From Escherichia coli (GTDB lineage Bacteria > Pseudomonadota > Gammaproteobacteria > Enterobacterales > Enterobacteriaceae): 64,000 nucleotides of DNA. Within the stretch, counting starts at the first letter, position 1. Each line of letters opens with the position of its first letter. The notes beneath the pieces are model-generated. The model did no database searches. It was not told the DNA's origin and was given only the letters and a program-made list of their open reading frames with translations. This document shows positions 8,717 to 26,237 of the stretch, piece by piece. The stretch is taken from assembly GCF_030384885.1 (NCBI RefSeq), contig NZ_CP128613.1; one strand, given 5' to 3'. The translations under genes and the position numbers were made by a program.

Positions 8717-9319
8717 TTATACCGCCTCAGTCAATTCAGGCTGAGGCGTTTCTACTCCCTCCGCATGAATCAACACCAAACCCGGATGATGCCACAAACT
8801 GGCTGGTGTTACGGTTTTACGCTCCCACGGAATCGAACCTAAAAACCAGAATTTCCAGAAAGTGAGTTTTGCGTTCGGATTGCTATTTAGCAGTTCTCCA
8901 AACGTCTCTATTTCACCCACCGGAATACATAACGCCTCTTTATAAATATCAAAAACGAATTTTGAGCAGAACTGGCGGGAAGATTCGTATTTAAAGCCGG
9001 TGTGGTAGAGCTTATGCAACCGTCCGGGGACCTTTTCGACCAGAGCAAGTTTTTGCTCTGCGGTTAAACCTCCTGCGAGGCGGCGAACACCGTAGCGTTG
9101 ATCGGTCGACCGTTCAATAAATCGTGACAAAGTTGTGATTGTGGAGAGCGGAACTCGACTCTCCGCAACCAGGTAATCATCACCGTCATGTCCGATGATT
9201 ATCCCCACATGGTTGCTCCAGCATTTCGAGGCTGCAGAGATTTGCCCAAACAGGCGAGCACCGATGCAGGTAAAAACAATATCACCGGTTTCATATTTAG
9301 CTGGGTAATTTATTTTCAC
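8717..9319 (-). CDS. yebB: DUF830 family protein
   Basis: 200-aa ORF convergent on ruvC; translation recognised as YebB. Confidence 0.82.
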
Positions 9320-9412
9320 TATATCAATCCATTATTTATATATAAAACAGCATCTATCTTTCGTGATGGTAAAGCATTAGCATTGTATTATAATAATGAC
9401 AAGGAATGTTTT

Positions 9413-10237
9413 ATGCGGTTATTTATTAATGTGATAATTATAGTTTCGATCAGTCAATGCGTGAATGTATTTGCTCAAGATAATGTCATCCGCTATCCCT
9501 GGCGATATGGACGTATTTCTTTAAATGAGAATAATGAGTTTGTGCCTCAAATTATTCATATGCGTGATGATATCTACGGCGTGGGTGAAGCTGGTGCAAG
9601 CCTTAACGATGCGAGAATGGCGCAAAGTGGTGTCGCCGTGAGGCTTAGCGTTATACAGCAGGGGCAGGTGGTGAATGCTTTACTGGATTTCTACAATAGC
9701 AATAATCAACCTGCTTATATCTTTGAAGGTGGTTTGATGCCTTGCAATAAAGCCTTTGACATCACAACAAGCAACATTGTCCTTGATGGGATGTGTGGAA
9801 TTTATGATGGGGTCGATGGCTGGCAAGTTATTCCTGCGGGTGATCATTATAAAGAATCATTTTCACTCACTCAGGCTTTTGAATTTCTGCCGGGAAAACA
9901 TCATTATAAAATTAATGCCGGAAGTTTTATCATCAGAGTCGGGGATGATATTTTTGCAAGAGAGGACGCCGAAAGCATTCTTTTTGATTTGATTAACTGG
10001 CGATATGGCTATGTGCTAAAAAGTTATGAAAGGGTGTCGAAGTGGGATTTAATGGCAGGGACTTATGTACTGCCTGAATACTCGGGGGATAAAAGAATGG
10101 ATGAGTATCGAATTTACTCAAACCAGGTGTCGATTGATCTTAATGGTGACGAGTTAGCACATACGGAGTCCTATCAGTGGCGAATTGATAGCGGAATGAT
10201 CCCGGAAAAATTCAGCGTTCAGGAACTCGCTGAATGA
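9413..10237 (+). CDS. Hypothetical secreted protein (signal peptide), unknown family; not part of the K-12 gene order as I recall it
   Basis: 274-aa ORF from ATG 9413 with AAGGAA RBS 6 nt upstream; N-terminus MRLFINVIIIVSISQCVNVFA/QD looks like a SPase I signal peptide; AT-rich codon usage; track ORF from 9188 overlaps yebB and is not the likely start. Confidence 0.6.
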   Translation: MRLFINVIIIVSISQCVNVFAQDNVIRYPWRYGRISLNENNEFVPQIIHMRDDIYGVGEAGASLNDARMAQSGVAVRLSVIQQGQVVNALLDFYNSNNQPAYIFEGGLMPCNKAFDITTSNIVLDGMCGIYDGVDGWQVIPAGDHYKESFSLTQAFEFLPGKHHYKINAGSFIIRVGDDIFAREDAESILFDLINWRYGYVLKSYERVSKWDLMAGTYVLPEYSGDKRMDEYRIYSNQVSIDLNGDELAHTESYQWRIDSGMIPEKFSVQELAE

Positions 10238-10274
10238 ATCGTCCTCTACCTGCTTGCCAGATACAGAGGCGCGG

Positions 10275-10859
10275 ATGAATTTATCAAGCGTATTCAATCA
10301 GCTTTTAATCTCATTTGCTCTTGCCGGGACGTTGATATTAAGCAGCTATCTCATGAAAGCTCACTACCCACGTTTCAGGAAGCCAATTGCGCTCTTTTAC
10401 TTCTTTTTAGCGATTTATACCAGTTATGCTGCCGTTCAGGAGTATGAGTACCACCGCAATAGCTTGACTACGCTCGCAAAAGTTTCTTCGATTCGTTATA
10501 CCAGTAATTTTAAGCGTAGCGCCTCGCACTCCTGCAATTTACTGCGGGGAGGAAGGATTGATTGCTCGGGGCTGTATGCCTATGACCTGACCTGGCAGAT
10601 TGACGGTAAGACCTGGAATTTGCATGTTGAGGACAAGCGTATAAAACCAGGAATCACCATGTGCGTGAAGGTTGTAAAAGATCGCCCCGCCATCGGGAAA
10701 CCCTGTGAAAACGTGTTTTTCAATATCAGCCCTTTGCCGATTCTGATAGCTATATGGGCAATAAGCGCATTTATATTTGCGGTCTTACTCCTTCACCAAC
10801 TAAAAAAATGCCGCGAATGGAAGCACGCCAGCAAGGAACGTGGAAAAATTGGCCATTAG
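10275..10859 (+). CDS. Hypothetical membrane protein, three predicted TM helices with Cys-rich loop, unknown family
   Basis: 194-aa ORF from ATG 10275 with GAGG RBS; 37 nt after upstream ORF stop; hydrophobic helices near N-terminus (x2) and C-terminus; basic C-terminal tail; AT-rich. Confidence 0.55.
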   Translation: MNLSSVFNQLLISFALAGTLILSSYLMKAHYPRFRKPIALFYFFLAIYTSYAAVQEYEYHRNSLTTLAKVSSIRYTSNFKRSASHSCNLLRGGRIDCSGLYAYDLTWQIDGKTWNLHVEDKRIKPGITMCVKVVKDRPAIGKPCENVFFNISPLPILIAIWAISAFIFAVLLLHQLKKCREWKHASKERGKIGH

Positions 10860-10957
10860 AAGTCAAAGAAAGAGTGCGATGTAAGGTGATTCATAGAAAA
10901 TTTCAGATACCGTGAGCCAAAGGATTATCAGTTCTGAAATGATTTAATATCATCCCT

Positions 10958-10977
10958 CGCTGGATATCTATCCAGCA
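10958..10977 (+). promoter_or_regulatory. LexA (SOS) box of ruvAB operon
   Basis: cgCTGGATATCTATCCAGca, CTG-N10-CAG palindrome about 50 nt upstream of ruvA start; matches the known ruvA SOS box. Confidence 0.8.
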
Positions 10978-11026
10978 TTTTTTTATCATACAGCATTATC
11001 TTTGATTCATTACGCAGGAGCGTCAT

Positions 11027-11638
11027 GTGATAGGCAGACTCAGAGGCATCATCATTGAAAAACAACCCCCGCTGGTATTAATTGAAGTGGGCGGCGTAGG
11101 CTATGAAGTGCATATGCCGATGACCTGTTTTTATGAACTCCCTGAAGCGGGTCAGGAAGCGATCGTTTTCACCCACTTTGTGGTGCGTGAAGACGCGCAA
11201 CTGCTGTACGGTTTTAACAATAAACAAGAGCGCACGTTGTTCAAAGAGTTGATCAAAACCAACGGCGTTGGGCCTAAACTGGCATTGGCAATCCTCTCCG
11301 GAATGTCAGCGCAGCAGTTCGTTAATGCCGTTGAGCGTGAAGAAGTCGGGGCTCTGGTGAAACTGCCGGGTATTGGCAAAAAAACCGCCGAACGCTTGAT
11401 TGTCGAAATGAAAGACCGATTTAAAGGTTTACATGGCGATCTCTTTACGCCAGCTGCCGACCTGGTACTCACGTCACCTGCGAGCCCGGCGACCGACGAT
11501 GCTGAACAGGAAGCGGTTGCCGCGCTGGTGGCGCTGGGCTATAAACCACAAGAAGCAAGCCGCATGGTGAGCAAAATCGCTCGCCCTGACGCCAGCAGTG
11601 AAACATTAATTCGCGAAGCCCTGCGCGCCGCGTTATGA
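11027..11638 (+). CDS. ruvA: Holliday junction branch migration complex subunit RuvA
   Basis: 203-aa ORF with GTG start; translation recognised as RuvA. Confidence 0.95.
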
Positions 11639-11643
11639 GGTAA

Positions 11644-12657
<1,014 letters not shown>

Positions 12658-12698
12658 GTTGAATAAGGCATTCAAGCCGCTTCCGACATTGGCGATAA

Positions 12699-12785
12699 GC
12701 CTGATGCGACGCTGTTCGCGTCTTATCAGGCCTACCAAAAGTAGCGAACCGTAGGTCGGATAAGGCGCTCGCGCCGCATCCGACA
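12699..12785. repeat. REP/BIME extragenic palindromes (two units)
   Basis: gcctgatgcgacgctg...cttatcaggcctac and gtaggtcggataaggcgctcgcgccgcatccgaca between ruvB and znuB. Confidence 0.7.
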
Positions 12786-12803
12786 AATGTGTTCAGCGAC
12801 AGA

Positions 12804-13589
12804 TTAGCTGGCCTGCTTTTTCATCATACTGATAATAAATAACAGTGCCGCACATAGCACTACCGACGGACCCGCCGGCGTATCGTAAAATGCGGAAAAG
12901 GTTAAACCGCCAGTTACTGCCACCATTCCCACCAAAACAGCGACACCGGCCATCTGTTCCGGCGTGCGGGCAAAGCGACGCGCTGTAGCTGCAGGAATAA
13001 TCAGCAGCGAAGTAATAATCAACGCGCCGACAAATTTCATCGCTACACCAATCGTCAATGCTGTCACCAGCATCAACAACAATTTCACGCGCTGTAATTT
13101 CACACCATCAACAAACGCCAGATCCGGGCTAATCGTCATCGACAGTAAATTACGCCATTGCCAGAACAAAATCGCTACCACGATGACCACGCCAATCGCA
13201 ATAGAGATGAGATCTTCTGGCGTCACTGCCAGCAAATCACCGAACAGGTAAGCCATCAAGTCAACACGAATGTTAGACATCAGACTAACGACTACCAGGC
13301 CCAGCGAGAGGGCACTGTGTGCCATAATCCCTAATAACGTGTCGATCGCCAGCTGTGGGCGCTTTTCCAGCCATACCAGACCACCCGCAAGCAGCAGCGT
13401 AACCGCAATCACCGCATAGAATGGATTAACGTCCAGCAGCAAACCAAACGCGACGCCAAGTAACGAGGCATGAGCCAGCGTATCACCGAAATAAGACATA
13501 CGACGCCAGACCACAAACGAACCCAGCGGACCCGCGGCACAGGCGAGCATGATCCCGGCTAACCAACCAGGAAATAATAATTCAATCAT
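12804..13589 (-). CDS. znuB: Zinc ABC transporter permease
   Basis: 261-aa hydrophobic ORF; translation recognised as ZnuB. Confidence 0.93.
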
Positions 13590-26217: not shown

Positions 26218-26237
26218 TACTGTATAAAATCACAGTT
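26218..26237 (+). promoter_or_regulatory. LexA (SOS) box upstream of yebG
   Basis: taCTGTATAAAATCACAGtt, CTGT-N8-ACAG, about 20 nt upstream of yebG start. Confidence 0.8.

Follow-up and report, generated by a model that had tools for sequence, protein, structure and literature searches.

A rare haplotype of the yebB-ruvA interval of Escherichia coli with a candidate orphan immunity-type gene

Introduction

What are two genes without any recognisable family doing at a core site of the Escherichia coli chromosome, between yebB and ruvA? The question is raised by a stretch of 64,000 nucleotides (contig NZ_CP128613.1 of RefSeq assembly GCF_030384885.1; hereafter the window, numbered from its first letter), where two co-oriented open reading frames, ORF1 and ORF2, follow the divergently oriented yebB. 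A previous inspection of the letters, here called the sequence-only reading, had singled out the pair as a candidate for an uncharacterised system, and the coordinates that it gave for both genes have been borne out (Table 1). A real accessory islet of about 1.6 kb is indeed present, which is best described as orphan-immunity-like, related to the presumed immunity genes that go with type VI secretion systems (T6SS), rather than as a novel kind of system. At the yebB-ruvA interval, the window has a rare haplotype in place of the usual one. The homology of ORF1 to a family of proteins encoded behind M35-like T6SS effectors, in the immunity position, is robust, and its function is deduced from that homology: judging by homology and gene context, there is about an even chance that ORF1 is an orphan T6SS immunity-type protein, which would neutralise an M35-type peptidase from rivals.

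Results

ORF1 and its family

The N-terminus of ORF1 reads MRLFINVIIIVSISQCVNVFA followed by QDN, with residues 1-23 hydrophobic, then VFA/QDN, and no lipobox. A Sec-type signal peptide, and thus export to the periplasm, is predicted. The sequence-only reading had proposed a secreted and a membrane protein, which the predicted signal peptide of ORF1 and the predicted transmembrane (TM) helices of ORF2 support, and it had recognised neither of them; no family model matches either protein. For ORF1, no significant match was obtained with Pfam, NCBIfam, PADLOC or PHROG models, no catalytic motif is present, and a search of PDB sequences with a profile of its family returned a chance match only.

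A profile of the ORF1 clade retrieved 41 proteins at E <= 0.001 among 1.84 billion representatives, with hmmsearch E-values of 8e-17 to 4e-4 for the 39 non-self matches. These proteins are mostly near-full-length matches, most of them of 270-315 amino acids (aa), all aligned members start with a hydrophobic leader, and the named ones, from Buttiauxella, Escherichia, Citrobacter and Rahnella, are almost all called "hypothetical protein". When the ORF1 clade was compared by hhalign with an alignment of members from outside that clade only (A6), used to exclude circularity, it matched this VgrG-linked family over 248 columns with a probability of 99.9% and an E-value of 7e-34, and tblastn of ORF1 reached the gene of the E. 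coli KE48/Nissle type at E 6e-7. ORF1 retains all the invariant and near-invariant positions of the family, and Cys111 and Cys128 are invariant throughout its clade. Mean identity is 22.6% between the ORF1 clade and the rest of the family, against 29.6% within the rest; the clade is a separate long branch.

The genomic context of the family is uniform. In every locus fetched, the homologue is encoded directly 3' of a protein of 190-310 aa that lacks a signal peptide; the loci came from E. coli (L009-L011 and, for strain KE48, L025), Buttiauxella (L012), C. farmeri (L013 and L014), Rahnella (L015), a metagenomic contig (L016), Citrobacter sp. (L017, with two pairs and an extra homologue) and an unassigned contig (L018). 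The upstream proteins make up one family (A5/A8), in which HExxH is invariant and a GTxD is conserved 14-17 residues further on; the start of their gene overlaps the vgrG stop in most loci, and several of the loci are found inside full T6SS clusters (Hcp, ClpV, TssM) or beside PAAR. Among structures, the effector profile matches those of M35 peptidases only, namely 1g12 (peptidyl-Lys metalloendopeptidase, E 7e-5) and AsaP1 (E 3.5e-4), and the RefSeq name of the E. coli effector is "peptidase M35" (WP_000107952.1; Nissle 1917, ATCC 25922 and KE48). The order of the Nissle 1917/ATCC 25922 type is PAAR, VgrG, "peptidase M35", homologue and second homologue, and this effector-immunity arrangement occurs in 134-153 complete E. 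coli genomes, both strains included; effector-immunity DNA of the L010 type was absent from the complete E. coli genomes.

Where T6SS effectors act in the periplasm, the canonical order of an effector-immunity pair is an effector that lacks a signal peptide and then an exported protein, and it is this order that points to an immunity role for the family. From gene position and localisation there are strong grounds to regard the members of this unnamed family as the presumed cognate immunity proteins of the M35-like T6SS effectors. The same order was shown for VgrG2b/PA0261 by Wood et al. (PMC6899460), and in B2 E. coli an M35 peptidase linked to VgrG was toxic only when directed to the periplasm (PMC7904677). 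In layout, the KE48 locus (L025) matches M35 module 5 of strain BCE049, which is described in the latter work.

A comparable arrangement is that of the Tpe/Tpi pairs, whose members include the C-terminal metallopeptidase of Pseudomonas aeruginosa VgrG2b with PA0261, Tpe1-Tpi1 of A. baylyi and SARI_02727/SARI_02726 of S. arizonae (PMC6899460; PMC12992299). The concept is the same, a periplasm-delivered HExxH metallopeptidase plus an exported immunity protein, and the protective function of PA0261 depends on DsbA, with the cysteines partially conserved in its family; ORF1, for its part, has two clade-invariant cysteines. However, Tpi proteins, which are often lipoproteins, belong to DUF7480 and are small, at 154 aa, while ORF1 has no Pfam match. 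Membership of ORF1 in the Tpi/PA0261 family was ruled out, as Pfam found no DUF7480 in ORF1 and 31 family members, and that of the effectors in the VgrG2b/Tpe family was rejected, as their profiles match M35 aspzincins and not the VgrG2b structure 6H56.

Set beside a member in the immunity position, such as the product of the gene after WP_000107952.1, ORF1 is alike in its near-full-length homology, size, Sec signal peptide, Cys111 and motifs. On the other hand, it has no adjacent effector, vgrG or PAAR, and sits at a core site; searches of the window and of the yebB-ruvA loci turned up neither an A5-family effector nor a vgrG, which is why ORF1 is read as an orphan of the immunity-position family.

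Two further observations concern the VgrG/M35 loci themselves. These often hold extra paralogues of ORF1 or effector-immunity fragments 3' of the first pair (L025, 8762-9733; L017, 6916-7734 and 9359-10279; L009, 6021-6997; L013, 10213-11499), and the extra paralogues look like arrays of immunity-type genes. The KE48 locus lies on NZ_CP141085.1, a record labelled as a 385-kb "plasmid" that has genes of chromosomal kind (narZ operon, nhoA, yddE/H) as well as T6SS vgrG islands, and which may be a mis-assigned chromosomal segment.

The yebB-ruvA haplotype

Table 1. Features of the window around the yebB-ruvA interval.
Feature	Position	Strand	Remarks
Divergent cassette-haplotype tract	9005-10949		yebB 5' half, intergenic region, ORF1 and ORF2; replaces the K-12-type yebB 5' half and yobI
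yebB, mosaic allele; YebB family permuted papain-like enzyme	8717-9319	-	NCBIfam NF008547, E 8e-115
Divergent yebB/ORF1 intergenic region, probably promoter region	9320-9412		ORF1 ribosome-binding site AAGGAA
ORF1, 274-aa predicted exported protein; signal peptide 9413-9475	9413-10237	+	N-terminus and family homology
ORF2, 194-aa predicted inner-membrane protein	10275-10859	+	Sequence and low-confidence AlphaFold2 model
ruvA SOS (LexA) box CTGGATATCTATCCAG at 10960-10975, then T-run	10959-10986	+	Intact, just right of the junction
ruvA, core gene, right flank	11027-11638	+

The unit that distinguishes this locus is larger than the two genes. The sequence-only reading had placed the insert between the yebB start and the LexA box of ruvA, and both ends need correction. 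The left breakpoint falls at about 9005, inside yebB, with about 94% identity to K-12 on one side of it and 53-78% on the other; the stretch 9334-10949 shows no homology to the K-12-type locus, and homology is back from 10950, that is, 10 bp before the LexA box, which leaves the SOS-controlled promoter of ruvAB untouched. For the 5' 315 nt of yebB, the window is 70% identical to K-12 (93% in the 3' part of the gene), 80% to Pseudocitrobacter and 97% to Escherichia sp. E1V33, and K-12 and Pseudocitrobacter are 69% identical to each other. As 70% to K-12 is an inter-genus level of identity, the unit is a divergent haplotype of about 1.95 kb. By the course of the sequence identity, the tract from about 9005 to 10949 would have been swapped by homologous recombination rather than acquired through site-specific insertion. 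A mobile island, an insertion sequence (IS) or a prophage remnant was considered and rejected: a search around the cassette found no tRNA, IS, integrase or transposase and no flanking direct repeats, in agreement with the sequence-only reading, and both junctions lie in homologous sequence.

In K-12 the interval is filled by yobI, a gene of 21 codons without a match in the window, and the cassette takes its place; the earlier statement that K-12 has nothing between yebB and ruvA was essentially right, apart from yobI. The composition of the tract also needs some precision. GC content lies at 0.33-0.44 over 9150-10350, against 0.50-0.56 in the flanks. Both genes had been described as low in GC, which is true of ORF1 (41.5%, and 39% at third codon positions, GC3), compared with 55% for ruvC and 53% for ruvA; ORF2 (44.8%, GC3 52%) is not clearly AT-rich, so the only clearly AT-rich gene is ORF1. 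Between ORF1 and ORF2 there is a gap of 37 bp, and both genes have ribosome-binding sites. The stretch with the LexA box and the T-run resembles a terminator for transcripts that read through from ORF2, and the promoter hexamers of ruvAB overlap with it; no second LexA box was found inside the cassette.

The RefSeq model of ORF1 has 349 aa and starts at 9188, antisense to yebB, which is in turn cut to 187 aa. The homologues known from further strains and genera speak for an ORF1 of 274 aa that starts at 9413 and for 200 aa in the case of yebB; since the ORF1 homologues have 273-274 aa and the same start methionine, the longer model is over-extended.

Of the 5,426 complete E. coli genomes, 19 have the cassette by megablast with 9320-10960 as query, always on the chromosome and at 94.9-100% identity, and the chromosome NZ_CP027579.1 of E. 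coli 2013C-4282 is 100% identical to the window. The other 5,407 genomes match in the flanks only, and have the layout yebB-yobI-ruvA. The proposal of an accessory insertion in core sequence is therefore upheld, and neither K-12 nor most E. coli align colinearly through the region with these genes present. Among 5.8 billion proteins, ORF1 falls into six clusters at 90% identity and ORF2 into four, and E. fergusonii is also named as a source of the identical ORF2 protein; of the 100,044 species representatives searched, only Escherichia sp. E1V33 and Pseudocitrobacter vendiensis gave matches. The cassette loci inspected were three of E. coli and Escherichia type (L004-L006) and those of E1V33, P. 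vendiensis and a Superficieibacter-like metagenome-assembled genome (MAG), and in every one of them ORF1 keeps the position yebB-ORF1-...-ruvA, a synteny that covers at least three genera.

Some of the carriers differ from the window in their surroundings. An extra gene for a 502-aa substrate-binding protein of the PstS family lies between ruvC and yebB in some E. coli carriers (L020 and L023, both 1342-2850), and the same layout is seen in the Superficieibacter-like MAG (L003, 3753-5246); this gene is not in the window strain. Two carriers have IS621 (IS110-like) between ruvB and znuB (L022, 7106-8086; L024, 7107-8087), which the window lacks. Cassette-bearing strains agree with the window at about 99% over nudB-ruvB but at only 78-84% over parts of znuB/znuC (window 12600-13900, compared with L004), where a second divergent tract lies close by. 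A perfect palindrome resembling a LexA box, CTGTATAAAATCACAG, also occurs in the window at 26220-26235; yebG starts 20 bp downstream of it and is annotated as DNA-damage-inducible, so such a box is ordinary and expected.

ORF2 and the second slot

From its N-terminus, ORF2 is composed of a first TM helix (about 8-27), the basic loop KAHYPRFRKP, a second TM helix (about 38-55), a beta-domain of about 100 aa, a third TM helix (about 153-175) and a short basic tail. An AlphaFold2 (AF2) model of low confidence (predicted local distance difference test score, pLDDT, 59) agrees with this layout; the AF2 models of both proteins were built on shallow first alignments, which predate the detection of remote homologues. 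The beta-domain has four invariant cysteines (87, 97, 130 and 144), and these together with the positive-inside rule suggest that it faces the periplasm. Neither Pfam, NCBIfam, PADLOC nor PHROG models gave a significant match, no relation to a toxin, immunity or defence family was detected, and tblastn against plasmids found no hit. Foldseek with the same model returned weak matches only (E > 0.01, TM-scores of 0.2-0.4), most of them DUF3592-like. DUF3592-type proteins have a similar layout of TM helix, small beta-domain and TM helix, while ORF2 lacks a match to Pfam PF12158 and has an extra N-terminal TM helix and the four conserved cysteines.

Only Escherichia and Superficieibacter have members of the ORF2 family, whose 16 clusters extend down to 37% identity. 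Twelve of these clusters have a conserved cytoplasmic tail of 60-70 aa, which the E. coli alleles lack, and when the sequence past the ORF2 stop was searched in its other frames for anything left of the tail, chance matches were all that appeared. Within Escherichia, lengths of 181, 189 and 194 aa occur, and the ratio of non-synonymous to synonymous substitution rates (dN/dS) is 0.55-2.0, on few substitutions. In E. coli, ORF2 is probably decaying.

The constant gene of the islet is ORF1, and the second slot is variable. ORF2 is absent from Pseudocitrobacter, where ruvA starts 132 bp after ORF1, and in E1V33 its place is taken by a 228-aa multi-TM protein with a Cys-rich C-terminal domain (L007, 5854-6540), which has no Pfam or NCBIfam match and is absent from the complete E. 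coli genomes; homology of that protein to ORF2 was rejected (hhalign probability 1%). The two genes of the window do not always co-occur, and ORF2 is a dispensable, non-obligate partner of ORF1. Its role may be that of a second protective protein, anchored in the membrane.

These data bear on the toxin/immunity pair that the sequence-only reading had entertained. A self-contained system, made of a secreted toxin and a membrane immunity protein or of a sensor and its partner, would fit two co-oriented genes that lie so close together, each with a ribosome-binding site, and encode one secreted and one membrane protein; moreover, ORF2 has been seen only beside ORF1. Yet ORF1 stands alone in Pseudocitrobacter and next to an unrelated gene in E1V33, it has no catalytic motif, its homologues occupy the immunity slot and not the toxin slot, and ORF2 is poorly constrained in E. 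coli, all of which make such a system very unlikely. The link to toxin/immunity biology stands through ORF1, whereas for ORF2 no relation to families of that kind was detected. A known anti-phage defence system was also considered and rejected, as PADLOC assigned zero families to both proteins, a result that speaks against the self-contained pair as well.

Discussion

The reading of ORF1 as an orphan immunity-type protein would imply the following course of events. A few E. coli lineages would have acquired the haplotype through homologous recombination, with crossovers at about 9005 in yebB and at 10950 and with the replacement of yobI. After Sec export and cleavage of the signal peptide, ORF1 would reside in the periplasm, where a disulfide between Cys111 and Cys128 would probably form in the mature protein. 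There it could bind and block an M35-type peptidase toxin injected by the T6SS of a rival, and the cell would be protected without having the weapon itself.

Several observations weigh against this proposal. ORF1 is only 18-28% identical to the VgrG-linked members, from which it also differs by an internal deletion and by the lack of two C-terminal cysteines that are common in the family and missing in its whole clade. Among 15 billion proteins there is no VgrG-linked relative closer than about 28%, so that no plausible cognate toxin is known, immunity proteins being usually specific. The AF2 model of ORF1 (pLDDT 38) is unusable and lends no structural support, and no published description or test of an immunity family for aspzincin/M35 T6SS effectors was found in the literature. 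ORF1 is frameshifted in the carrier MFDS1022581, and the carrier MFDS1019527 has the same annotation with three coding sequences, from which a disruption of ORF1 seems likely there too. Another finding favours a gene of long residence, co-regulated with yebB, as the yebB-ORF1 intergenic region is better conserved than ORF1: in a 116-column alignment (window 9310-9425) of Escherichia, Pseudocitrobacter and the Superficieibacter-like MAG, mean column identity is 87%, above the 67-80% of the ORF1 coding DNA across genera.

Such a high intergenic conservation suggests a shared divergent regulatory region for yebB and ORF1, and it invites a different account, in which ORF1 would be an old periplasmic protein, kept vertically at this site, co-regulated with yebB from a shared divergent promoter and devoted to some housekeeping task, for example as inhibitor or chaperone of an endogenous envelope enzyme; a tie to T6SS attack would have been lost or would never have existed, the VgrG-linked immunity genes being its relatives and not its source. 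In keeping with it would be the shared location of the gene in Escherichia, Pseudocitrobacter and Superficieibacter-like genomes, which each have flanks of their own, the linkage of the yebB 5' half to the cassette, and the long branch of the ORF1 clade without a close VgrG-linked relative. However, 99.65% of E. coli lack the gene, as do nearly all Enterobacteriaceae among the species representatives, so that an essential housekeeping role does not apply; AT-richness such as it shows is a typical trait of accessory genes, and all the other family members examined are T6SS-linked. On balance we consider a domesticated ORF1 possible, though rather unlikely.

The frameshifted and the presumably disrupted copies lead to another alternative, in which the cassette of E. 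coli would be a functionless, hitch-hiking relic of an imported haplotype. The very low frequency of the cassette (19/5,426) and the state of ORF2, with its length variation, the loss of its cytoplasmic tail and its dN/dS of 0.55-2.0, would also be expected from decay. On the other hand, 17 of the 19 E. coli carriers have an undamaged ORF1 and its dN/dS of 0.19-0.42 denotes purifying selection, 49-71% protein identity has been kept across genera, and the ribosome-binding sites and the upstream region are conserved; a mere relic is thus improbable. Still more doubtful is a scenario in which ORF1 would be a periplasmic, T6SS-independent metallopeptidase inhibitor, fixed in the chromosome, co-expressed with YebB from a conserved divergent promoter and forming with the interchangeable membrane proteins of the second slot an unrecognised envelope-protection module, from which the M35 immunity genes would have been recruited.

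If ORF1 is an orphan immunity-type protein, its nearest parallels would be the orphan immunity arrays of Vibrio cholerae and the putative immunity islet of Salmonella Typhi (PMC7400221; PMC7702109). The likeness would consist of an effector-less gene of immunity type, low GC content, patchy distribution and a variable neighbour slot. In contrast to them, the islet described here lies away from any T6SS or auxiliary cluster, has no effector remnant and is fixed at one syntenic core locus across genera; its protective role is putative.

If ORF1 gives no protection, the islet would be just a rare accessory haplotype. In any case, two deeply diverged forms of the yebB-ruvA interval exist, a haplotype of the yobI type and one of the cassette type, which is relevant to pan-genome, recombination and yobI studies. 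As a by-product, an unannotated immunity-position family has come to light behind M35-like T6SS effectors, present in much-used strains (Nissle 1917, ATCC 25922) and without a Pfam or NCBIfam model. Two "hypothetical" genes of E. coli are thereby linked to interbacterial warfare, and the islet becomes a candidate for weapon-free protection, in which an orphan immunity gene at a core-genome site may shield its host.

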